This document shows positions 3,900-46,647 of a DNA stretch of 64,000 bases, one piece after another. Each line of letters opens with the position of its first letter. Position 1 is the first letter of the stretch. The stretch is from a virus: the IMG/VR virus record IMGVR_UViG_3300029023_000077, one strand, 5' to 3'. Position numbers and translations under genes: made by a program. A model generated the notes under the pieces. The model was not told the origin of the DNA. It searched no databases and saw nothing but the letters and a program-made list of their open reading frames with translations.

Positions 3900-4520
3900 A
3901 TGGGGATATGCCCGTTATGCGGTTCAAAATTGAATAGTAAGAATATGTGTACGAATTTTACAGCATGCTCCTATGTGGGCACTAATAGTTTTGATTTGTA
4001 TTCGTTAAAAGATGGGGTTACAGACGAACTTCGGAATAATCTGGTGATTGTTGACCAGACAGTGGCTACAATGGATTTGCCTGCTACACCAGAATTTTTT
4101 ATTTTAGGCGGAGCAGCATTAGTATTTCATGGATTGACAGATCGCCCTACTATGGATATTGACACAGCCAACAGAATAGACGATAATCTACGTGAGGTTA
4201 TTGATGTATTTGTTAGTGATCAGGCAAGTGAGGTTACTCAGCTTGGAAAAGGGTATCAGTGCAGAGCAGTGCCATATATGGAGGAGTTAAGCAACATTAA
4301 GGTGTATCTGCTATCACAGGAAGACCTGATTATAACGAAGGTAATCAGTAATCGGAAAAAGGATATTGGGGATTTGTTGAAAACCAATATCTTGACAAAA
4401 CATAATGTACAGAAGGCGGTAAGTGTCCTTCAGGCAGAGTATCCTGCAGATGCAGCTAAAAGGTATTCTGCTTATATAAAGCATTTGTTAGCTCGAAAGG
4501 AGAACGCAGATTTTGAATAG
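3900..4520 (+). CDS. Pol-beta superfamily nucleotidyltransferase with N-terminal zinc ribbon
   Basis: CPLCGSK...C..C ribbon; ILGGAALVFHGLTDRPTMDIDT = GG-x14-DID NTase motif (AbiEii/Lnu-like). Confidence 0.5.
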   Translation: MGICPLCGSKLNSKNMCTNFTACSYVGTNSFDLYSLKDGVTDELRNNLVIVDQTVATMDLPATPEFFILGGAALVFHGLTDRPTMDIDTANRIDDNLREVIDVFVSDQASEVTQLGKGYQCRAVPYMEELSNIKVYLLSQEDLIITKVISNRKKDIGDLLKTNILTKHNVQKAVSVLQAEYPADAAKRYSAYIKHLLARKENADFE

Positions 4521-13699: not shown

Positions 13700-14197
13700 A
13701 TGGATTTGAAAGCTAAAAGTAGGGAGATTTCGGAAAGTCTTGTAAAGCTCAAAGAAGAACTTCATCAGACAAAAGAAACTATTCAGCAAGAGATGGAAAT
13801 GAACCTGCATGAGTTAAAGGACGCATCCAGTAAAGGTGACCGTTCTGAGAATGCAGCATTTACAGCAGCAACAGAGAAAGCGCAGGATCTTACTATCCAG
13901 CTTGCTAATGTTGAAAAACTGTTAAATGACATTGAGAATATGAAGAAGGAAGAGAAGTACCGAAACATTGGTATGGTTGTTTACTATACAACTGTATTAC
14001 TTTATGTTCCGGCTAAGAATAGGAGATTTGTATTGAAGTTGTACCCTAATGGTGTATCTGATATTGGCAAAGGCATTCTTGCACGTAACTGTGCAGTTGG
14101 TAAAGCTATATGGCAGAAACATAAAGGTGATGAGGTTTTTGTTATTGATAAGTGTACAGGCGAAGACCTGAAATATATTATTGAGGACTTTTATTAA
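13700..14197 (+). CDS. GreA/GreB-like transcript cleavage factor
   Basis: GDRSENAAFTAATE matches GreA tip GDLKENAEYHAARE (catalytic D/E kept); C-terminal SDIGKGILARNCAVGK...GDEVFVIDKCTGED matches the GreA FKBP-like domain. Confidence 0.6.
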   Translation: MDLKAKSREISESLVKLKEELHQTKETIQQEMEMNLHELKDASSKGDRSENAAFTAATEKAQDLTIQLANVEKLLNDIENMKKEEKYRNIGMVVYYTTVLLYVPAKNRRFVLKLYPNGVSDIGKGILARNCAVGKAIWQKHKGDEVFVIDKCTGEDLKYIIEDFY

Positions 14198-14217: not shown

Positions 14218-16260
14218 ATGATTGAATGTACGAAAGCGATTGATGGGTTAGTAAGTGCAGCTTTTGGGAAGAATATGGTGACTATCTCTGATTTGAAGAA
14301 GATGATGGACAGATTTGCACTTGATCCTAAGGTATCAGAAGTAGCCAGAGAAGCATTCATTGTCAGTGATGTTGACCTGAACAGACGCATGCTCAAGGAG
14401 TTTGAAAAGAAAGCAGCGGCTAAGCATGAAGAGGTTGTCATTATTTTTGTAGCAAAGAAAGGTCCTGCACCATTCAAAGAAATGGCAGGTGTTAATGCTA
14501 TTTTAGAAAAACCGACACCAGAAGATTTGAGTAAAACAACATTCGGTATTATCGAGAGCATTACACAGAAGAATGGCGTTGTACCTATTACTGGTGTAAC
14601 AGATAGCGCAAAAGATTTTGTGAGACAGGAAGAACCAGTTGATCTTGATGTACTTACAGATGAATTTGGTAACCCACTGGAATTTGACCTTAACCGGGTC
14701 GTTGAGGACGAGAAGCCACAGGAAGATACAGCACCGATTGACGTTCCTGTTCCTACTTTGGAGGAGCAGCCAGTTCAGGAAGAGCCGCCAGTCCAGTTTG
14801 ATAAGCCTGAGGATCTTGTTGACCGTATCAAGATGTGCGATAAAGTTAAGGACATTAATATCTTGACACGTGAGCTGACAGCTACAGCTGTCATTAAGGA
14901 GATGATCAAGTCTTCAGCAGACTACACAGGAATTGAAGAACGTTTGAAAGGGCTTAATGAGAAGATTCAAGCAGTATATCTTGATACAACAATTCCTGAG
15001 CAGGATAAGTTGGATAAGGTTCGTGCTCTACTCTATGATAAAGGTTATTACAGAACAAAGACTAACACTATTATTGAGCAGCGTGTAGAAGAGCTTATCA
15101 AGACTATTACTGACCGGACAAGAGAATGCTTGGATAAGCGATGCCAGGAATTAGAGAGGGCAATCGTTAATTATTCATCAGGAGTAAAAGCTCCTTTGGA
15201 TACTGCCAGGGTGTCTAGCCTGATTGATGATCGTGCAAACATTCTTCTGGAAATTACAGCTTTGCGTGAAGAAGTGCAGAATATCTATCTTAAGGTAAAC
15301 AAGTTTGCAGGTGATGCTACTGCTAATATTCTTGAAGACAGTGTGGTTCGCACAGGAAGCCCATTAATTGATGCTCGTTTAAGGTTAGCTGGAGATACTA
15401 CAGTACCTGAGCAGACAACAGAAATCATTGAGAAGATTTTAGAACTGTCAAGTACTAAGTCTGAGGAGTTTAAGGAAGCAAATAGAAAATTAATCATTCT
15501 TACACAGAAGTTGCAGACTGTTATGAATTTAGACAAAGATTTGATTGACGCCCTTACGCAGGCTGTTGAGCTTCTGCAGAGTAACAATATTGAGGATCGT
15601 ATCGTACAGGAGACACTGCTAAAGAAGTCACTTAGGTTCTTTGTGGCAAAAGAAGGCAGTGGAAGGACTGTTATCCCATACATTTGCTCTAAGTTGAAGT
15701 CCAGGACAAACTGTAATGTGCTTTATGTGGATATCGCAGGTGATTCTAAGCTCGCAGATTATACAGAGAGTTACATGAGTCTGGATGATTGGTTAGGTAA
15801 TCAGTATCAGGAGCAGTTCTGTGCAGTAGTTGGTACAATCTCAAATACGCCAGAGGCAGCACAGCGTTTGCTTGTTGCCTTAACAAAGGCAGCTGACTAC
15901 TATCGTGTAATTAATGTTGTAATGAGTCCTGAACAGAAAGAGATTTTTGACATTCTTGTTCCAGATACGGTATGTGTTAATTATATCGTTGACCCTACAT
16001 CACAGTCACTTGATTTCTTTAAGGGCTATATCAAGGAGACTAAATGTGAAAATGTGGCTCAGCGTGTAATTATTAACAAGTGTATCCCTAGTACGACTAG
16101 TATGATTCTTGAGAAGCTGGATCTTATCATGAATGGAGACGTACATGTCGTTACAGTACCGTATGAGCCTCTGATTACGGAATGTAGTCTGCGTGGTGTT
16201 AAGCCATATGAGTTGCAGGTCGTTACAGAAGCATTCAGAGAGGTGTGCAAAGTATGCTAA
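14218..16260 (+). CDS. large hypothetical protein with acidic, proline-rich linker
   Basis: 680-aa ORF; EEQPVQEEPPVQ low-complexity segment; RBS AAGAAAGAGAGG. Confidence 0.55.
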   Translation: MIECTKAIDGLVSAAFGKNMVTISDLKKMMDRFALDPKVSEVAREAFIVSDVDLNRRMLKEFEKKAAAKHEEVVIIFVAKKGPAPFKEMAGVNAILEKPTPEDLSKTTFGIIESITQKNGVVPITGVTDSAKDFVRQEEPVDLDVLTDEFGNPLEFDLNRVVEDEKPQEDTAPIDVPVPTLEEQPVQEEPPVQFDKPEDLVDRIKMCDKVKDINILTRELTATAVIKEMIKSSADYTGIEERLKGLNEKIQAVYLDTTIPEQDKLDKVRALLYDKGYYRTKTNTIIEQRVEELIKTITDRTRECLDKRCQELERAIVNYSSGVKAPLDTARVSSLIDDRANILLEITALREEVQNIYLKVNKFAGDATANILEDSVVRTGSPLIDARLRLAGDTTVPEQTTEIIEKILELSSTKSEEFKEANRKLIILTQKLQTVMNLDKDLIDALTQAVELLQSNNIEDRIVQETLLKKSLRFFVAKEGSGRTVIPYICSKLKSRTNCNVLYVDIAGDSKLADYTESYMSLDDWLGNQYQEQFCAVVGTISNTPEAAQRLLVALTKAADYYRVINVVMSPEQKEIFDILVPDTVCVNYIVDPTSQSLDFFKGYIKETKCENVAQRVIINKCIPSTTSMILEKLDLIMNGDVHVVTVPYEPLITECSLRGVKPYELQVVTEAFREVCKVC

Positions 16261-17648
16261 ATCTTGATGGTTATTTGGATTGTAATAAAGTCCTAGACAT
16301 CAATAGGTATACGAGTCTTAGATTTGCAGATTCACGTGTATTTAAAACGCCAGAGGCATTGTCTTTATATGAGCAGAATTACATGCTTGCATCGGATATT
16401 AAAAAATTGTGTGAGAAAGAATATGGTCTTGAGCTGTTTGAGCCAAGACCATCTTTTATACCAGATGATATCATAAATCATTACAACGGTTCAGGTTATG
16501 TACCTATAAAGTATGAACCTATGAAGAATATCTTGTTGTTGATGTATCTGCCTGAAGTAAAAACATTAGAAAGTCATTACCCTAATGTGCATATTGAGAC
16601 TAAGCCAACAACCATATATTACTATATGAAATATTATCAGAAGTATTATGGTGTTCACAGATCTCTGCGGGATATTCCAGCTAAGATGTTATTTGATTTT
16701 GTTGTAAAAGAAGCTATTGAGAAAGATGCTGCAGATATTACGATTTCAAATACTGGTAAAGCCACAGTTGTATATTACAATATACGCAAGCGGAAGGTAT
16801 GGTCAAACTATTGCTTTAGCCAAGAAATCATGGGTGACATTATAAAGTTTATCACTATAAGCTCACCATTAGACAGAGGGTCTCGTAAAGCTAAGGCTTT
16901 AGATATCGATTTAAATGAAAATTACCGTGGCAGAGTCATGATAAATCAATCATTTAAAGGCATGACTATTACAATTCGTGTTTTACCAAACGCAGCATTC
17001 TCTACTGATATAACAGAGTTAAATTTGACAAAAGAAGCCGAAGAGTGGATGTTGGATAATATTCTTGATATGGAGAAAGGGCTTCGCTTGATTGTAGGTG
17101 AGACAATGTCCGGGAAAAATACAGATGCTTTGTCCCTGTTACAGCGATTAGTAGAGACAGACAGGTATAAGATAGTGTCCGTAGAGATACCAGTGGAGCA
17201 AGAATTGCCTGGTGTTGAACAAATTAATTGTGATACGCCGGACGATTACTCAAACAACATAAAATCTTTAATCAGAGTGAATCCAGACTTTGTTTACATT
17301 ACAGAGATGCAGGATGCTACTGCATTAGACACTATTAAGATAACTAACACAGGTAAATGTGTTTTATCAACAGTACATGCAAACTCTGTCGGGGATACTA
17401 TCGTGAGGCTGATGGATATGACAGGTTTGCCTCAGGATAGAATTGTACAAACTTTGCATTCTGTAGTGTATCAGGAACTCGTAAGAGATGACTCTAAGGA
17501 TTTTGTATATCCAAGATGCCGGTATGTTCGTTTCACGCCTGAGTTGAAGTACCAGCTTTATGGGAAACCACTAGGTGTGATGTTAAAGATTATTCAGGAT
17601 TATGAGGAGGGGGATGTATGGACATCTATTCAGCATTTGGCACAATAG
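16245..17648 (+). CDS. GspE/PilT/VirB11-family traffic ATPase
   Basis: Walker A GETMSGKNT; Asp/His boxes RVNPDFVYITEMQDATA ... TGKCVLSTVHANSVGDTIVRLMDM as in PilT/VirB11. Confidence 0.65.
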   Translation: MQSMLNLDGYLDCNKVLDINRYTSLRFADSRVFKTPEALSLYEQNYMLASDIKKLCEKEYGLELFEPRPSFIPDDIINHYNGSGYVPIKYEPMKNILLLMYLPEVKTLESHYPNVHIETKPTTIYYYMKYYQKYYGVHRSLRDIPAKMLFDFVVKEAIEKDAADITISNTGKATVVYYNIRKRKVWSNYCFSQEIMGDIIKFITISSPLDRGSRKAKALDIDLNENYRGRVMINQSFKGMTITIRVLPNAAFSTDITELNLTKEAEEWMLDNILDMEKGLRLIVGETMSGKNTDALSLLQRLVETDRYKIVSVEIPVEQELPGVEQINCDTPDDYSNNIKSLIRVNPDFVYITEMQDATALDTIKITNTGKCVLSTVHANSVGDTIVRLMDMTGLPQDRIVQTLHSVVYQELVRDDSKDFVYPRCRYVRFTPELKYQLYGKPLGVMLKIIQDYEEGDVWTSIQHLAQ

Positions 17649-27787: not shown

Positions 27788-28640
27788 ATGGCAGTAGATA
27801 TTAATGCAATGAGAAAATCTCAGTCCACAGTAGCTATAGATCTGGTTAATGATAAGTTTACGGAGAAGATGTCGAATATACAGCTATTAGACTATATTGC
27901 ATTGGTTCTTGCACGTAATATGGCATCCAATATTGCTTTTAAGGGTGGTTGGGTATTACGTCAGATTATGGAAGGTCATGCTAGGGCAACAAAGGATGTT
28001 GACCTTTCTGCGGAAACTGAAAAAAAGCTATGATGAAGTGAAAGCTGTTTTAAAGGAAATTGGGCAGTTATTACAAGCCAGAGGAATGATTAATGAATTT
28101 GTGATAAAAGAGGAGATAAAGCCAACACAATCCGGAGGTATCACAATGTATAAGGATGGCTCTATTGTTGCTGGTGTGGATGTTGGTCTGCATAACATAC
28201 ATTATGGCGTTCAGCACTATGAGCTTAATTATGGGTTTGACGCTTTTACGATAGAACGTATGTTGTCTGATAAGATATTGGCTATATTAACACGGAAGCA
28301 TTTTCGAAGAACAAAGGATTTGTATGATGTCTATGCCATTTCTCATGTTTTTGACTTCAGTTCGCAAAAGATAGTGGAATTTATGAGAGAACGAGGTGTG
28401 ACTCCTGAATGGGATAATATACCGTTTAGCGCTGTAGTTTTAGAACAATACGAGATTGCTTGGAATAAATTAAGGGTGCAGGCTATATCGACTGATGTTG
28501 AGGTGGAAAAGCCTTCATTCACGGCTGCTATAAGCACGTTTAATGAAATTGCTTATAAAGTAAAAGAAATATGGTTAGGACAGGACAGCTCTGTGTATGA
28601 GTGGAACCATAATAATTGTGGGTGGTCTGTTTCAGAATAG
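27788..28640 (+). pseudogene. AbiEii/DUF1814-like nucleotidyltransferase split at an A7 homopolymer
   Basis: Part 1 27788-28033 carries NIAFKGGWVLRQIMEGHARATKDVDLS (KGG...R.T.D.D NTase motif). Part 2 is the ORF from 27897 to 28640 in the adjacent frame. Deleting one A at 28020-28026 fuses them into one ~284-aa protein. Confidence 0.5.
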
Positions 28641-37809: not shown

Positions 37810-38616
37810 ATGAATTACTGGACAGATAAGGAAAGAAGAAGAATAGCTGCGGTTGAATGGAATGAATATATCCATAATAATTATAAGGCTGAAATCAATG
37901 AGTGCATTAAGAAGACTGAGTTATGGGATGAGTTTTGTCCTTTAGAATATTCTGATGTTGTAGGTAGTGAGGTTGAATCTATGAAGGTTCTACAATTAAC
38001 CACAACACAGGCAATCAAACACTGCAGCCAAGAAGGTGAGAGAATAGCAGTATTGAATTTTGCTAGTTTCAAAAATCCTGGTGGTATGTTTTTAAATGGT
38101 TCTGGTGCGCAGGAGGAATCCCTATGCCATGAATCTCTACTGTACCCTGTATTAAAAGCATTCAATGCAAGTTATTATGCGGTTAACCATAATAACCTGA
38201 ATAGGGCTCTGTATAAAGATAAGTTGCTGTATTCTGTGGATATTCCATTCTTTGATATGAAGGCAAAGAAACCAGCAGACAAGGCGGATGTTATCACATG
38301 TGCAGCTCCTAATTGGGGTGCCTACGCAAAGTATCATGAGCCTATTTCTGATAGAGACATTGCTTTAAATCGTGAGATGCTTCGTTCACGGTTTGAGAAG
38401 CTCTACTTTGTTGCAGCAAAACATAATGTTGATACATTGATTCTTGGTGCATGGGGATGTGGTGTTTTCAAACAGAATATACATACTGTTATTGATGTAA
38501 TGCTTGAAGTAATAATGTCATATCAGGCAAATATTAAACATATTGTATTTGCTGTGCCTGATGCGGATAGTTTTAGAATATTTGATAGCAGGGTGAGAAA
38601 AGCAGTAGAAGCATAA
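37810..38616 (+). CDS. microbial-type poly(ADP-ribose) glycohydrolase (DUF2263/TIGR02452 macro domain)
   Basis: VLNFASFKNPGGMFLNGSGAQEESLCHESLLY = PARG GGG-x6-8-QEE signature; LILGAWGCGVFKQN second conserved block. Confidence 0.8.
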   Translation: MNYWTDKERRRIAAVEWNEYIHNNYKAEINECIKKTELWDEFCPLEYSDVVGSEVESMKVLQLTTTQAIKHCSQEGERIAVLNFASFKNPGGMFLNGSGAQEESLCHESLLYPVLKAFNASYYAVNHNNLNRALYKDKLLYSVDIPFFDMKAKKPADKADVITCAAPNWGAYAKYHEPISDRDIALNREMLRSRFEKLYFVAAKHNVDTLILGAWGCGVFKQNIHTVIDVMLEVIMSYQANIKHIVFAVPDADSFRIFDSRVRKAVEA

Positions 38617-41338: not shown

Positions 41339-41353
41339 TAAGGAGTGTTCAGT

Positions 41354-41590
41354 ATGACAAGTATTAAAGTAAATTTGGATTCTGTTAATAAGGTAAAGGA
41401 GTTTGTAGAAATTACAGGGAAATTCCCTGAAGATTTAGATTTGGCTCATGGAAAGTACGTAATTGATGCTAAATCCCTGATGGGTATTTTCAGCCTTGAT
41501 TTGTCAAAGCCACTGGACCTGACAATCAACTCAGATGATGAGGATAGAGTTGAAGAGATTTCAGCTGCATTCAGTTCATTTAGGGTGTAA
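41354..41590 (+). CDS. HPr-like fold protein lacking the phosphorylatable histidine
   Basis: GKYVIDAKSLMGIFSLDLSKPLDLTINSDDEDRVEEI parallels HPr [32 protein letters not shown]; no His at the His15-equivalent position. Confidence 0.4.
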   Translation: MTSIKVNLDSVNKVKEFVEITGKFPEDLDLAHGKYVIDAKSLMGIFSLDLSKPLDLTINSDDEDRVEEISAAFSSFRV

Positions 41591-41679: not shown

Positions 41680-42073
41680 AGGCCTGTAATGGTTTCGACA
41701 GGGTTATGAGGTTAAGTATTGCATCGGTCAGTCACCTATAACCAAAAAACAAAAAAATAGACGCTACAAGACGCCCTATGGCTATTGCTGCTTAATCTCG
41801 TGAGAGGTTGGTTGTTATAGTTCCGTTGCTACCGGGTAATGGGACGATGGTGATAGCTACCTCAACGTTTGCTACTATAAAGTAAATAGCTATGATGCTA
41901 GACTCCCAATCTTAGTATTGATATACAGCCTCGCAAGGAGGCTAGGTGCACAAACAATGGCCATGTAAGGTTTGTTAATTTTACCTGTATATGACTGTAA
42001 CGAAAATTAACTAAGATGTAGATATACTTATTAGTACTTTCTTTGGACACGGGTTCGATTCCCGTCAGGTCCA
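41680..42073 (+). ncRNA. ssrA: tmRNA (SsrA-like transfer-messenger RNA), tag ATRRPMAIAA
   Basis: 5' AGGCCUGUAAUGGUUUCGACAGGG parallels GGGGCUGAUUCUGGAUUCGACGGG. AAAAAAAUAGAC-GCU... parallels E. coli AAAAAAUAGUC-GCA at the resume codon. The tag frame GCU ACA AGA CGC CCU AUG GCU AUU GCU GCU UAA lies at 41763-41795. 3' end is T-arm ACGGG-UUCGAUU-CCCGU plus acceptor CAGGUCC-A pairing with 5' GGCCUG (G3:U). Length ~394 nt. Confidence 0.8.
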
Positions 42074-42161
42074 CTTAGATACTAGGAGAGGCTAAGACTC
42101 TAGTAGTGATGAGACCATCACACTAGTAGCTTTAAGTAAACAAAGCGAAGGAGATTTATTT

Positions 42162-42914
42162 ATGCGAGTAATATCTATGCAAGGTAAAGTAGTCTGGGAC
42201 ATTCTACAGAGAGATAAGGTGTATTATGCTGATAAGGCCTTACTGCGAGAAGACAACTACTATAGTAAGGATATTAAGCGACTTAATGGGGCTATACCTA
42301 TTTGGTGTTATAGTTGGCCAGATTTAAGTTTTCATTCAATGTATAACGGGGAAGTTCTAGATTATTTAAGAATGGAAATGAGTCTAGAACAAAAGAATTG
42401 CTGGGATTCTTTTGTAATGTTTGAGTTAGATATCCCAGATGATTCTTTAATTGGGTACACGCACAATGCAAGTGCATATTCTGTGATAATACCTAGATTA
42501 AGCTTAGATATGGTAAAAGCTGTTTATACAGTAAGGGACGCAAATAATGCTAATCCTTACTGGAAAGTAATAAACCCTATATGGATTAGTGAGACAGATA
42601 AGTGTGACATTATTACTAAGACAGAGTTAAACTGTGAATTGCTTACAGAAATGGAAGAAAGTATATCAGATGTTTTCGTTGAAGACGAAAGTGGAAGGTG
42701 CTTATGGTGTAATAAAGAAAGTACTTATACTGTTGATGGAAAGCATTTCTGTTCCCTGGGTTGTAAATGGGAGCATGAAAGAAGATTTATTAATGTGCTA
42801 AGAAGCAGAGGCATTTCTAGGTGTAGAGCGCTATGTATTCACTCTAGTTTTACAGATGCTGATTTTGCGCATGGAATTGTAAAGGCAGCTAGGAACGTAG
42901 TATCTAATAAGTAA
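42162..42914 (+). CDS. hypothetical protein with C-terminal Cys/His cluster
   Basis: 250-aa ORF; CLWCN...CSLGCKWEH. Confidence 0.5.
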   Translation: MRVISMQGKVVWDILQRDKVYYADKALLREDNYYSKDIKRLNGAIPIWCYSWPDLSFHSMYNGEVLDYLRMEMSLEQKNCWDSFVMFELDIPDDSLIGYTHNASAYSVIIPRLSLDMVKAVYTVRDANNANPYWKVINPIWISETDKCDIITKTELNCELLTEMEESISDVFVEDESGRCLWCNKESTYTVDGKHFCSLGCKWEHERRFINVLRSRGISRCRALCIHSSFTDADFAHGIVKAARNVVSNK

Positions 42915-43131
42915 CTTAGGAATGAAGAACAGTTCTATTGTAGGGGTTCGATTGGATTAAAGTGTATCGTCTGCGTAATTCATTTCATCTCTCACCGCAT
43001 TGCTAGGATATATAGAGAGAGCCATACGATAGCATATCCTAGACCTATTAAAGATCGTCTTGCTGTTGGTGCTTCGTGGTAGCAAGAGTAATTAAGATTG
43101 CTGCGAATTCTTTTCTAATAATATTTATGAG

Positions 43132-43329
43132 GTGAAATTTATGACTTATGAAGAGTTTAAAGAGTCACGTAAGGATGTTAAGTATTCGGATGGTACACAT
43201 AAATGTATTGTATGTGGTAAGATTCCAGCTTATTGGGAAGTAGGAGATGCCAGGTACTATTGCTCGGCATGTGAAGAACATTCTGGATTAAAAGATAACT
43301 ATAAACGTTACTGTAGAAGATTACAGTAA
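43132..43329 (+). CDS. small zinc-finger protein
   Basis: CIVCG ... CSAC. Confidence 0.45.
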   Translation: MKFMTYEEFKESRKDVKYSDGTHKCIVCGKIPAYWEVGDARYYCSACEEHSGLKDNYKRYCRRLQ

Positions 43330-43413
43330 TGTCTTGTTTAATTAGTGGATTTAGACCACTTCCAGTCTTCCTATTAAAATTAAAATTAAAATCATTTAAG
43401 GAGAATTTAAATT

Positions 43414-43716
43414 ATGTCAGATGTAGTTCAGTGGATAGTTGTTTTTGTATTAGCACTATTAATTTACCTTATGTATATACGTGGTTTCATTAAATACATG
43501 AGGTCTAATAAGGTAGTTATAGGTATGTCAGAAAAGCAGGTAAGGCATCTTATTGGTAGACCAGACAAAATCAAGGGTACCGGTAATTCAAAGGTTGTAA
43601 TCTACAGATTTCACTATGCAAACAGGTTATCTGCTGAGACAAGCGTAAAAGTTTGTATTGAGTTTAGGAATAATGAAGTGGCACATGTTTATAGGTCTAT
43701 TGATAAGTGGAATTAA
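43414..43716 (+). CDS. small membrane-anchored protein
   Basis: N-terminal TM helix VVQWIVVFVLALLIYLMYI. Confidence 0.5.
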   Translation: MSDVVQWIVVFVLALLIYLMYIRGFIKYMRSNKVVIGMSEKQVRHLIGRPDKIKGTGNSKVVIYRFHYANRLSAETSVKVCIEFRNNEVAHVYRSIDKWN

Positions 43717-43740
43717 AGTATTTTATGAGGGGGTGTAATT

Positions 43741-43908
43741 ATGTCAAAAGTAAACATGAGTAACTTAATACTATTCTTATGTGCATCATCAAAGATACCT
43801 ACCATTGTATTCGCACATCATACTACAGCGGAGGGTTGCACAAAGCTATGCAAGTTAATTAAGGAGACTTACGATAATGAAGAGAAATATGGTAGCTCCC
43901 ACACATAG
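43741..43908 (+). CDS. small ORF (55 aa) at 5' edge of the ncRNA locus
   Basis: RBS GAGGGGGTG; ends 10 nt before T-arm module A. Confidence 0.3.
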   Translation: MSKVNMSNLILFLCASSKIPTIVFAHHTTAEGCTKLCKLIKETYDNEEKYGSSHT

Positions 43909-43918
43909 TGTAATTATG

Positions 43919-44030
43919 TGGGGTTCGATTCCCTATCGAGGCGTTCAGGTGAAGGGTAGTCCAATCCTGTGGGCGGGTGCGGTTAGAGTGCAGAGGGTGA
44001 GTTTGGGTAACACGCTGTACTGGAACCTGA
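43919..44030 (+). ncRNA. repeat unit A: tRNA-like T-arm/acceptor module plus conserved ~85-nt element
   Basis: TGGGG-TTCGATT-CCCTA T-arm plus TCGAGGC-G, then AGGTGAAGGGTAGTCCAAT...CACGCTGTACTGGAACCTGA. No matching 5' acceptor within 95 nt, so not a canonical tRNA. Confidence 0.35.
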
Positions 44031-44096
44031 TGTATTGAGAGGAGTTCTGTATTTTATGTAACAAAGATAGTTAGTAGAATTGATGGGGGAATTACT

Positions 44097-44216
44097 ATGA
44101 GTAATGATAAAAATAAAAATGTAAATAATGCAAAGAAGCAGGCCTGTGGTAGACATACATTTTTAGCTGATGTATCAAAGAAAGCTACAGAGGCTGCTAA
44201 AAAGAAAAAATATTAA
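44097..44216 (+). CDS. small lysine-rich ORF (39 aa) between the two ncRNA units
   Basis: RBS GGGGGA; MSNDKNKNVNNAKKQACGRH... Confidence 0.3.
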   Translation: MSNDKNKNVNNAKKQACGRHTFLADVSKKATEAAKKKKY

Positions 44217-44234
44217 AATAACAATTGAATAAAT

Positions 44235-44390
44235 AGAATATTAGTTCATTGGCAGAACGACCATATGTGTATGTAGTTGGTTCGATTCCAACATATTCTA
44301 TTAGGTGAAATGGTAGTCCAAATGTCTGTTGGGTGGCTGAGGTTAAAGTGCATGAGGGTGAAATTGGGTAGCACGCTGTACAGGAACCTA
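44235..44390 (+). ncRNA. repeat unit B: 66-nt tRNA-like element plus second copy of the conserved ~90-nt element
   Basis: Acceptor AGAATAT/ATATTCT-A, U8A9, D-arm GTTC-ATTGGCA-GAAC, perfect T-arm GTTGG-TTCGATT-CCAAC, but only 16 nt where anticodon arm and variable loop should be. Then AGGTGAAATGGTAGTCCAAA...CACGCTGTACAGGAACCTA, about 80% identical to unit A. Confidence 0.35.
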
Positions 44391-44475
44391 TTTTAATATA
44401 GCTGGCAGAGCAAAAGAAATAAGAGAGGGTCGGCACTCTCTTAAAGTATTTGGTGGTTAAGCTCTTGCACTTAAT

Positions 44476-44509
44476 CGTGTAGATGATGGGTTCAATTCCC
44501 ACTCCAGCT
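44476..44509 (+). ncRNA. third tRNA-like T-arm/acceptor module
   Basis: ATGGG-TTCAATT-CCCAC then TCCAGCT; possible 5' partner GCTGGCA at 44401 gives a 109-nt span, too long for a standard tRNA. Confidence 0.25.
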
Positions 44510-44588
44510 GTTTCTAATAAAAATATGCAAGGAGATAGAAGAAATTAGACTAGGTTCGTTGTTACATGTTAATTAAAATTAGAAAGGA

Positions 44589-44843
44589 ATGGATAAGATT
44601 ATGGCAAAGAGAATTGAAGATTTAAGAAGTAGTAAGTCATCAGAGCATAAAGGAGGGAGAAAATGTATGATTAAAGTTTTAGGCGATGCAGATGATAATA
44701 TTTTAACTTGTCCATCATGTAAGCGAAATTTGGCTTATAAAGACTCAGATGTAAGAGAGTATCGTGTGGATATACAATCTTGGGAAAGAGGTATTACATG
44801 TCCAGTTTGCAAAAGTATGATACAAGTTCCACAGATATTTTGA
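44589..44843 (+). CDS. small zinc-ribbon protein
   Basis: CPSCKRN ... CPVCKS. Confidence 0.5.
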   Translation: MDKIMAKRIEDLRSSKSSEHKGGRKCMIKVLGDADDNILTCPSCKRNLAYKDSDVREYRVDIQSWERGITCPVCKSMIQVPQIF

Positions 44844-44967
44844 GTAGTTAGATGCACATGGCATTTATGATGAGGATTAAGTTATAAATAATATTTATGT
44901 ACTCTCGAAGTCTTCTAAATGAAGCATTCCGAGAGTACATATATTTTATGAATGGAGGTTTTTTATT

Positions 44968-45189
44968 ATGGCAATAGATATTAAAGAAGCAAGAAAGAAT
45001 TCGTTAGACATGACATTTAGCGAGTTCTTGAGTAACTGTACTGCATGTGGCGGTAATTGGGGTGCCATGTTATTAACTGGTATTAAGAGAGTATTTCCAG
45101 ATAACTATGAGGAAGTAGAGAAGAAATACAATTCTATGGATTTTTCTCATGGTGGTGTTTATCCATTTATGTTTTATGCGAGTGGTTAA
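44968..45189 (+). CDS. hypothetical protein, MAIDIKEARK N-terminal family
   Basis: RBS GGAGGTTTTTTATT-ATG; shared N-terminal motif. Confidence 0.5.
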   Translation: MAIDIKEARKNSLDMTFSEFLSNCTACGGNWGAMLLTGIKRVFPDNYEEVEKKYNSMDFSHGGVYPFMFYASG

Positions 45190-45260
45190 CTGCACATGGT
45201 ATCTATAGTGAAGACAAGAGTTAAGTTTAAAAATAATATTTTATGGATGGAGGTTTTATT

Positions 45261-45641
45261 ATGCTAGATATTAATAAGATGAGAGAAAAACAGGCTTCTG
45301 TTAAAGAAGGTTTAGAATACGATAAGGTTCATGATTTCGACGATTTACAGATGGAAGAAATTAGATTAGGGCTCACTGATGGGCTAGATGTATCTGTCTA
45401 TGCTAAACATGAGTTTGATAGTGAGCAAATGTCAAAAATTAGATTAGGACTTCTCAATGGATTGGATGTATCTGTCTATGCTAAGCCTGAGCTCTCTTGG
45501 AAGCAGATGGAAGAAATTAGATTAGGACTCGCTGATGGACTGGATGTATCTGTTTACGCTAAGCCTGAGCTCTCTTGGAAGCAGATGGAAGAAATTAGAT
45601 TAGGGTTTACCACGTTAACTAAAATTAGAAATATTTTATGA
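45261..45641 (+). CDS. hypothetical protein with 26-aa tandem repeats, MLDINKMREK N-terminus
   Basis: ATG 45261 after GGAGGTTTTATT; 3.5 tandem 78-nt repeats LGLxDGLDVSVYAKPELSWKQMEEIR. Confidence 0.5.
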   Translation: MLDINKMREKQASVKEGLEYDKVHDFDDLQMEEIRLGLTDGLDVSVYAKHEFDSEQMSKIRLGLLNGLDVSVYAKPELSWKQMEEIRLGLADGLDVSVYAKPELSWKQMEEIRLGFTTLTKIRNIL

Positions 45642-45657
45642 AAGAAGGATTTTTATT

Positions 45658-46647
45658 ATGGCAGTAGATATTAAAGAAATGAGAGATAATGGTAAAGGAT
45701 TTACTAGACTGGTTACTTTCCAGTCTAGTAATGTTACGAACGCTATTCTTAAATACGATATAGTCGAAACCCTAGACTCCGTCGAAAACTCTATGCCACA
45801 TGGTGTCAGAAACTGGGAGAAAGATAAATCCTACATAAAAATGAGTGATGGCAGTATCATGACGTTTACTGATAATGAGTCTGATAGAGACAAGATTTAC
45901 TTATTAGCTAAGGATAGGAACAAGATGAAGGTATGGCCTTTCTATGCATATGAGAAACATAGATATTGTGGTGATTTGTATAACATGAGTGTACGTACCG
46001 TGTATAGATTAGCTTCTCATTTTATGGGATATATGGAGTATGAAGGCAGAGATATTATTGAGCTAGTTGTGCCAGAAGAGTATATTTTAGAGTCTCGTGA
46101 AAATGATAATTACCTTGAATGTTTACTGCCATGCATAAAGAAGGAATGGGTTGTTAGCATACTTAGATTTGATGATTATGTAGCAGAGCCTGTGCATGGA
46201 GAGAATGCATTAAGGTACAAGAATGAAGTATACAGGACGGATACCTATCGAATGTGTTATGGGGATGACATAATTCTTAATGGACATGGTTATGGCGATA
46301 ATGTTGAATACTGCATGAGTCCAAGTCTATTAGGCAGAGTAGATGATGTATCAATTCAGAGAGATTACGTTCAGCGCAATATATGGAATCTCTATAAGAA
46401 ATACTTATACATTATAAGACATGGATTAAACATTAATGATATTGTTAGTGTTGATCTTAGGGCTGCAACGGCAGAGATGCCTGATAAGTTAAACTTGGCT
46501 ACAGTACATTCATTTGCATCCTGTTTAGACAAACTGCGTCAGTATACAGGTGTAGATGTTTTAGATAACTCAACACCTTATAGTTTACGTGTTAAGAGTG
46601 TTTCATCAGAATATTGTGAACAGCTTGATAATGACGATGAAAGTTAG
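45658..46647 (+). CDS. hypothetical protein, MAVDIKEMRD N-terminal family
   Basis: 329-aa ORF; acidic C-terminus. Confidence 0.55.
   Translation: MAVDIKEMRDNGKGFTRLVTFQSSNVTNAILKYDIVETLDSVENSMPHGVRNWEKDKSYIKMSDGSIMTFTDNESDRDKIYLLAKDRNKMKVWPFYAYEKHRYCGDLYNMSVRTVYRLASHFMGYMEYEGRDIIELVVPEEYILESRENDNYLECLLPCIKKEWVVSILRFDDYVAEPVHGENALRYKNEVYRTDTYRMCYGDDIILNGHGYGDNVEYCMSPSLLGRVDDVSIQRDYVQRNIWNLYKKYLYIIRHGLNINDIVSVDLRAATAEMPDKLNLATVHSFASCLDKLRQYTGVDVLDNSTPYSLRVKSVSSEYCEQLDNDDES

Follow-up and report, generated by a model that had tools for sequence, protein, structure and literature searches.

The virus record IMGVR_UViG_3300029023_000077 of IMG/VR, a stretch of 64,000 nucleotides (nt) referred to here as the window, carries on its plus strand a cluster of small RNAs, some of which mimic transfer RNA (tRNA); the cluster is real, selected and non-coding, and represents a new RNA family. 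Its core is a conserved non-coding block of 295 nt (44230–44524) consisting of a tRNA-like unit (unit B, 44235–44300), an 89-nt structured element (element B, 44302–44390) and a second tRNA-like unit (unit C, 44399–44511). Upstream of the block lie the relic of a third unit (unit A, 43919–43945) and a paralogous copy of the element (element A, 43946–44029). Units B and C cannot decode codons. Selected, tRNA-shaped RNAs that do not decode are therefore wrapped around an RNA that is even more constrained and belongs to no known family, and the locus would add a new structured RNA family for study. We treat the source of the window as a huge uncultivated gut phage or another giant mobile element; tRNA-related genes are numerous in huge phages and in other giant mobile elements of the gut, and their roles are poorly understood.

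Relatives were located through protein searches with the neighbouring genes (L060, L069 and L072 fall short of the locus), and comprise near-identical genomes (L016–L025) and three more diverged lineages (L050/L051, L054–L059 and L061). Unit B, the element and unit C are intact as one block in all four lineages, and alignments of nine variants define its extent. The block is 94.5–96.6% identical to its counterparts in L050, L054 and L061, compared to 81–94% for the flanking genes and 85.8% for the transfer-messenger RNA (tmRNA) gene nearby. The edges of homology are sharp, lying about 5 nt before the acceptor of unit B and about 13 nt after the discriminator of unit C, and 5' of the block the lineages differ by rearrangement, with different small ORFs (open reading frames) and an indel flanked by TAAATAG. 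Variation is unevenly spread within the block, with about 13 variable positions in the 66 nt of unit B versus 4 in the 89 nt of element B across the four lineages, and the L061 copy contains compensating 1-nt indels.

These comparisons bear directly on the possibility that the modules are neutral relics with no present function, whether remnants of a phage tRNA array in decay or a spacer duplicated not long ago. It is true that all three modules are non-canonical and unit A clearly degenerate, and that copy A is lineage-specific and the family limited to one clade. However, none of the flanking genes, nor the tmRNA gene, is conserved as well as the block, whose conservation ends sharply amid a rearranged neighbourhood and whose substitutions lean towards preserving base pairs (11 columns versus 3); we therefore consider neutrality improbable.

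The locus is marked by a T-arm motif, GGTTCRATTCC, which matches four times in 64 kb where none is expected, always on the plus strand and within 2.5 kb. One match lies inside the tmRNA gene (42052) and the others in units A, B and C (43922, 44279 and 44489), within 3–8 nt of the places at which a preliminary description of this DNA had put three plus-strand T arms. The same description stated that none of these belongs to a complete canonical tRNA, which agrees with the result from ARAGORN, where default, intron and relaxed (-ps) modes all returned zero tRNA genes in 43740–44590; calls at the locus arise only in low-stringency or mitochondrial modes. Unit B alone passes the Rfam tRNA covariance model (gathering threshold 29 bits). 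Modules A, B and C each lack an encoded CCA and each have UU after the discriminator, and a 7-nt anticodon loop with a 3-base anticodon is absent from all three, which are non-canonical throughout. Units B and C share the acceptor, D arm, T arm and tertiary nucleotides with canonical tRNAs (RF00005) and with phage tRNA pseudogenes, and of these parts unit A has the T arm only; unlike decaying pseudogenes the modules are conserved, and ARAGORN rejects all three. Resemblance to tmRNA is limited to a 15-nt T-arm fragment of unit C, the only match of model RF00023 at the locus (11.8 bits), and the modules do not combine a tag frame and pseudoknots with a tRNA-like domain.

Unit B is the most tRNA-like of the modules by score, reaching 44.2 bits with the Rfam tRNA model in an alignment from which the anticodon arm is deleted. 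It has a 7-bp acceptor stem (44235–44241/44293–44299), U8 and A9, a D arm (44244–44258) with a 4-bp stem and a loop containing A14, G18, G19 and A21, and a T arm (44276–44292) with a 5-bp stem and the loop UUCGAUU, followed by discriminator A44300. The parts originally listed for this unit are all present, as is the unusually short anticodon region: exactly 16 nt (44260–44275) separate G26 from the T stem, and the anticodon arm is replaced by a hairpin of 4 bp and 4 nt (CAUA-UGUG-UAUG, 44262–44273). The minimum free energy (MFE) fold is an exact cloverleaf with this mini hairpin, and ARAGORN calls the unit in metazoan-mitochondrial mode only. All seven acceptor pairs and all five T-stem pairs are retained in each of the nine variants. 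In L061 one D-stem pair has changed from U-A to C-G, a compensatory substitution, and wobble pairs preserve the D stem, the mini hairpin and the T stem through further changes.

Unit C departs further from the canonical form. That the locus contains three tRNA-like modules had been recognised at the outset, and this stands; the complete fold of unit C, read here from the sequence, had not been. Its D loop is expanded to 49 nt by an insertion carrying an 8-bp hairpin (44420–44427/44436–44443). The 7-bp acceptor stem (44399–44405/44504–44510; one A-C mismatch in L018 and L019) and the D stem GAGC/GCUC (44408–44411/44461–44464) are followed by an anticodon-like stem of 5 bp (44466–44470/44477–44481) whose loop, UUAAUC, has 6 nt; a variable region of 4 nt leads to a T arm (44486–44502) closed by A-C or A-U, and the discriminator is U. 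ARAGORN reports the unit only after in silico removal of the D-loop insertion, and then as 'tRNA-??? (aa)' with a 2-base anticodon. The fold has a z-score of -2.1, and variation among relatives falls in the hairpin loop or preserves the stems by wobble, apart from two mismatch columns.

Element B begins 1 nt after the discriminator of unit B and ends 8 nt before unit C. The consensus fold obtained with RNAalifold from element A and five variants of element B is rod-like and closed by a 5-bp helix, P1 (44302–44306/44386–44390 in B; CAGGU/ACCUG, 43946–43950/44025–44029, in A), whose onset lies 1–2 nt past the discriminator in both copies. In element B this is followed by a large, almost invariant 5' bulge or loop with GAAAUGGUAGUCCAAAUG, and by inner helices P2–P4 that end in a GAGG loop. 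Many of the pairs are G-U, so that the fold fits the plus strand only. Covariance model R1 scores element B at 114–119 bits in every lineage and element A at 74.6 bits (E=1e-19), and finds no additional copies in the window or in the related loci.

The similarity of the two copies, originally put at about 80% and about 360 nt apart, is confirmed at 81.6% over 87 nt (43947–44028 against 44303–44389), reaching 89% in the final 36 nt, and the separation is as stated. Three indels shift the reading frame of A relative to B over the 5' halves, which places the similarity outside the protein level. One P1 pair is U-A in B and C-G in A, a compensatory change, and an A-to-G substitution in L050 retains pairing as U-G; P3 and P4 are preserved through several one-sided wobble changes, with one pair replaced by G-A in A. 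Together, the frame-breaking indels between the copies, the 1-nt indels in L061, the covariation in P1 and the wobble changes in P3 and P4 support the element as a structured RNA, neither spacer nor protein-coding. This is what the preliminary description had proposed, and the element is also the most conserved part of the region. The tRNA-like character of the modules that it saw is likewise upheld by the Rfam score of unit B, by ARAGORN and by structure counts in the variants. For these counts we compared nine distinct variants with a proposed structure of 77 pairs and found standard pairs in 98% of cells: one pair, in the D stem, is compensatory, ten columns change on one side and still pair, and three columns contain mismatches. 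The structure is therefore backed by covariation, though not proven by it.

A protein-coding role, or an origin of the modules as attP-type copies of host tRNA 3' ends, is scarcely credible in the light of this variation. Three ORFs exist mechanically over the cluster: a 53-aa frame (43877–44038, plus strand), which gene callers annotate in relatives, a 39-aa frame (44277–44396, plus strand) and a 101-aa frame on the minus strand (44197–44502). The frames of A and B nevertheless differ over their 5' halves, the compensating 1-nt indels of L061 lie inside the block, and the minus-strand ORF bears two 'GIEP' motifs that are simply the T arms read backwards. The ORFs overlapping the RNA block are likely to be annotation artefacts; tRNA finders overlook the block, while gene callers place spurious ORFs across it. 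Phage attachment sites typically carry pieces of T arm and acceptor, but B and C possess 5' acceptor strands of their own, and there is no integrase among the neighbouring ORFs scanned.

Unit A and element A are found in the window's own lineage only (L016–L025, L063 and L065) and are absent from L050/L051, L054–L059 and L061. The preliminary description had made extension of the A/B similarity to homologous phages a test of its reading, and only B extends so far. Unit A, recognised by its match to GGTTCRATTCC, consists of a T-arm-like hairpin (UGGGG-UUCGAUU-CCCUA, 43919–43935), the 7-mer UCGAGGC, then G and UU. It has no match to a tRNA model, its MFE fold is not a cloverleaf, and the sequence that would supply its 5' half is shared with the 3' end of a 55-aa ORF. 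We suggest that unit A and element A arose as a lineage-specific partial duplication of unit B and the element, in which the tRNA part would have decayed to a T-arm relic and the fold of the element would have been retained. In lineages without copy A we observed a sequence of about 50 nt (GTATTGGATGTATAGTACACTC.TAAGTTATT.AGG.GATATAGGTAAGT; L054 6596–6648), which occurs twice in L050 (1000–1048 and 1303–1350), one copy lying at the place of the 55-aa ORF and unit A and the other closely preceding unit B, where a 73-aa membrane-like ORF has its 3' end.

Both small ORFs listed previously are present. The 55-aa ORF (43741–43908, plus strand) has a strong ribosome-binding site, GAGGGGG, and in L054 its N-terminus alone is conserved. 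The 39-aa ORF (44097–44216, plus strand), which is rich in lysine and separates element A from unit B, is preceded by TATTTTATG (44050–44058) and by a GGGGGA ribosome-binding site. A frameshift in L050 leaves it with 22 codons, and its end is altered by a 1-nt deletion in a run of A in L018, L020, L021, L023 and L025; its coding status is for these reasons doubtful.

Our proposal is a small operon of non-coding RNAs, three of which (unit B, the 89-nt RNA and unit C) would lie head to tail on a transcript read through from upstream genes. A scan of the block detected no convincing promoter or terminator inside it, the only hairpins returned being the T-arm hairpin of unit B on the plus strand and the reverse complement of the D-loop hairpin of unit C on the minus strand. 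Host RNase Z would cut just past the discriminator of each mimic and RNase P at its 5' end, which would free the 89-nt RNA with defined ends that fall about 1 nt before P1 and about 8 nt after it. Since it is the most constrained part, this RNA is probably the effector, and may act by binding protein or by base pairing, with the mimics serving mainly as punctuation and perhaps contributing stability. The stack of acceptor and T arm is recognised by both enzymes, and RNase Z acts on CCA-less precursors; the absence of CCA combined with UU after the discriminator reportedly also marks those substrates of RNase Z in Bacillus subtilis that lack CCA, as described by Pellegrini and colleagues in 2003. 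Given the spacing of the parts, this lack of CCA with following UU, the conservation of modules that do not decode and the lack of a convincing internal promoter or terminator, the most economical account is that the mimics signal to the enzymes of tRNA maturation where to cut, so that the element and the mimics as well would be freed from a read-through transcript. We regard this as the most probable mechanism, at about even chances. If it is true, phages use the tRNA-maturation machinery of their hosts to produce effector RNAs that are not tRNAs.

A more specific version can be put forward only tentatively, namely that non-decoding mimics, as RNase P and RNase Z punctuation, give rise to a new class of effector RNA of about 90 nt in which the GAAAUGGUAGUCCAAAUG bulge is the surface that binds a target, either a protein or an RNA of host or phage. 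If so, the locus would be a prokaryotic counterpart of the tRNA–microRNA (TMER) strategy of herpesviruses. The bulge showed no above-chance complementarity to anything within the window.

Several observations weigh against the processing model. Cleavage by RNase P or RNase Z is something we infer, and what points to the punctuation class is the spacing together with the missing CCA and the UU. The covariation is thin and comes from four shallow lineages, and a shuffle control reached the observed value in 50 of 500 cases. The interior fold of the element is not unique, as P2 (UCUGU/ACAGG) competes with a hairpin of 5 bp and 7 nt (UCCAA...UUGGG), energies preferring P2 in B and the alternative in A, and the MFE z-scores of the element and of the whole block are unremarkable, a measure that is uninformative for AU-rich RNAs of this kind. 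Unit A lacks a convincing 5' acceptor partner, so that the logic of punctuation is not obvious there. Finally, RNase P and RNase Z need little beyond the stack of acceptor and T arm, and yet the D arm of unit B is maintained, which suggests that the mimics may also act in their own right, perhaps as decoys or sponges.

Such a role can be extended to the view that the mimics are themselves the effectors, L-shaped RNAs without an anticodon that would serve as decoys or sponges for factors that bind tRNA (such as defence toxins of the host that attack tRNA, enzymes of modification, the CCA-adding enzyme or EF-Tu), with the 89-nt RNA an accessory or a second sponge. The full elbow of unit B (A14, G18, G19, A21 and GTTCGA) and the compensatory change in its D stem exceed what RNase P and RNase Z need, both mimics are kept in all lineages, and other parts of the window encode functions that are related to tRNA or resemble toxins (two nucleotidyltransferases of AbiEii/DUF6036 type, a HipA_C-like protein and the tmRNA). 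However, the mimics are 3–4 times more variable than the element between them, anticodon nucleases cannot be decoyed by RNAs without anticodon loops, and there is no partner gene adjacent, the nucleotidyltransferase genes lying 16–40 kb away. On balance we think it unlikely that the mimics, rather than the RNA they enclose, are the effectors.

The element could also act in cis, as a leader or riboswitch-like aptamer governing downstream expression. It has the compact, P1-closed form and the near-invariant loops and bulges of such a domain, and copy A lies about 70 nt upstream of the 39-aa ORF at 44097–44216. That ORF is unconserved, however, and the copy that is conserved, B, precedes tRNA-like unit C and no gene start; no terminator, antiterminator or alternative pairing that sequesters a ribosome-binding site was found, and no Rfam riboswitch matched at E<=10. 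A regulatory leader is accordingly very unlikely.

The known system closest to the proposed RNA cluster in a phage is that of the stable RNAs C and D of T4 (species 1 and 2), small RNAs encoded in the T4 tRNA gene cluster, which are co-transcribed with tRNAs, matured by the tRNA-processing machinery of the host and show partial tRNA-like features. The likeness is one of mechanism, and there is no sequence relationship. It differs in that the neighbours of the T4 RNAs are real decoding tRNAs whereas no module decodes here, and in that the 89-nt element, unlike RNAs C and D, has a closing helix of its own and no T arm. Fusion of a non-decoding tRNA mimic to a small RNA, with cleavage at the mimic by RNase P and RNase Z setting the ends of the partner, also describes the TMERs of murine gammaherpesvirus 68 and the MALAT1/mascRNA pair, and is like the mechanism proposed here; those systems are eukaryotic, their tRNA-like part contains RNA polymerase III promoters, and the partners are precursor microRNAs or a long non-coding RNA. 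The likeness to mascRNA and TMERs is an analogy only, the mascRNA model matching unit A weakly, at 14.7 bits (E=1.5) against a gathering threshold of 42.5. The punctuation of mitochondrial transcripts by tRNAs is similarly an analogy of mechanism and not membership of a family.

Bacterial and phage Y RNAs offer another comparison. They have tRNA-like T and D arms, occur in tandem on one precursor, and can be cut by RNase P and receive CCA (PMC4201824), and one reading of the locus is a YrlA/YrlB-type cluster that binds the Ro60/Rsr protein. The tandem RNAs with T- and D-arm mimicry fit this, and the 5-bp stem with a 6-nt 'anticodon' loop in Yrn1 of D. radiodurans resembles unit C (PMC4201824); in addition, the 5' strand of the element reads GGUGAA(N0-2)G, one base off the Ro-binding motif GNCGAAN0-1G, with U for C (PMC4201824). 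This match is short and imperfect, and the acceptor ends are open. Y RNA genes as a rule have a Ro60/TROVE gene on their own strand no more than about 4 kb away (PMC4201824), but no TROVE domain was matched among the neighbours at 42162–46647 or the other ORFs of at least 150 aa scanned (about 45 ORFs), and thus none within 4 kb on the same strand. The modules are in the normal tRNA order and not in the permuted T-acceptor-D order of YrlA, and the Rfam covariance models produced no Y-RNA-type match at E<=10. Membership of the Y RNA family is therefore highly doubtful.

Searches beyond the related loci returned little. Rfam 15, whose families include riboswitches, ribozymes, T-box, GOLLD and ROOL, gave nothing at gathering for the element across the whole window, and no credible match to it at E<=10 (43000–45200 for both copies, 43860–44045 for copy A); blastn of the 1.7-kb region against INPHARED phages gave no match. 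The element was thus found neither in Rfam nor among the INPHARED phages. Exact-pattern scans of IMG/VR for the element gave chance matches in coding DNA only, and those for units B and C gave nothing; a scan of GTDB species genomes gave 24 matches, all due to chance, and in JGI metagenomes there were three copies, all from the window's lineage, and one chance match. The RNA family therefore seems restricted to a single clade, and this narrows the evidence as well as the reach of the finding.

Some further resemblances of the element were considered and rejected. RNase P RNA, which is defined by colinear conserved regions (CR-I to CR-V) and P4, gave no Rfam hit, and local alignment of element B to E. 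coli rnpB was at chance; element A has one match of 18 nt (0 of 200 shuffles), but B lacks it and its order relative to the other motif is wrong. Likeness to E. coli 16S, 23S and 5S RNA and to the phage tmRNA was at shuffle level, and strand likenesses to RNase P RNA, 16S rRNA, signal recognition particle (SRP) RNA and Y RNA, based on matches of 8–18 nt, did not hold. A T-loop pentamer that suggested a double T-loop, T-box-like arrangement was dismissed because the second pentamer is unconserved in A and in orthologs, and a hammerhead-like CUGANGA motif is likewise unconserved in A and has no Rfam match.

The sole canonical tRNA-related gene in the window is the tmRNA gene (plus strand, 41680–42076; ARAGORN 41680–42074; RF00023, 87.3 bits), which lies 2.2 kb upstream of the block and provides context only. 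It encodes an unusual tag, ATRRPMAIAA*, which varies by lineage (ATRRSMACAA and ATRRPMTMAA; tmRNA genes also lie at L054 4832–5224 and L019 9152–9547). Identity between the tmRNAs of the window and L054 is only 85.8%, so that the gene is less conserved than the block 2 kb downstream. An HPr-like 81-aa ORF (41345–41590) is located directly upstream of it.

The window has a GC content of 37%, and every long ORF (at least 150 aa) is on the plus strand; GC skew is positive in all 2-kb bins of 1–64000 (0.17–0.33). Its proteins include a helicase, a clamp loader and a 5'-3' exonuclease. Exact copies of window genes are present in human gut metagenome contigs of 88–440 kb, whereas known phages and plasmids give only distant protein matches; related contigs reach 440 kb, and those of lineage P0005 631 kb. 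Alongside the two AbiEii/DUF6036-type nucleotidyltransferases (3900–4520 and 27897–28640), the window encodes a HipA_C-like protein (58840–60123), a PARG-like protein (37810–38616) and a T2SS/T4SS-type ATPase (16245–17648), giving it a toxin- or defence-like and plasmid-like gene content although it otherwise resembles a huge phage.

The sequence TATTTTATG that precedes the 39-aa ORF occurs 15 times in the window compared to 2.4 expected, with 13 of the 15 on the plus strand (e.g. 43719, 44050, 44942, 45237, 45632, 48659, 51652 and 61969). The sites are intergenic, just 5' of ORF starts or overlapping them, and the sequence may be part of a promoter or translation-start signal of the mobile element. 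Downstream of the RNA block, the ORF at 45243–45641 contains three tandem 78-nt repeats (45348–45604) that are 74–81% identical and encode a 26-aa unit (…LGL.DGLDVSVYAKPELSWKQMEEIR…); the repeat-bearing gene differs in copy number and size among relatives (100, 126, 230, 282 and 432 aa). In L024, an IS200/IS605-type Y1 transposase (13721–14149, minus strand) is inserted about 3 kb downstream of the RNA block, and is the only minus-strand gene seen among these loci.

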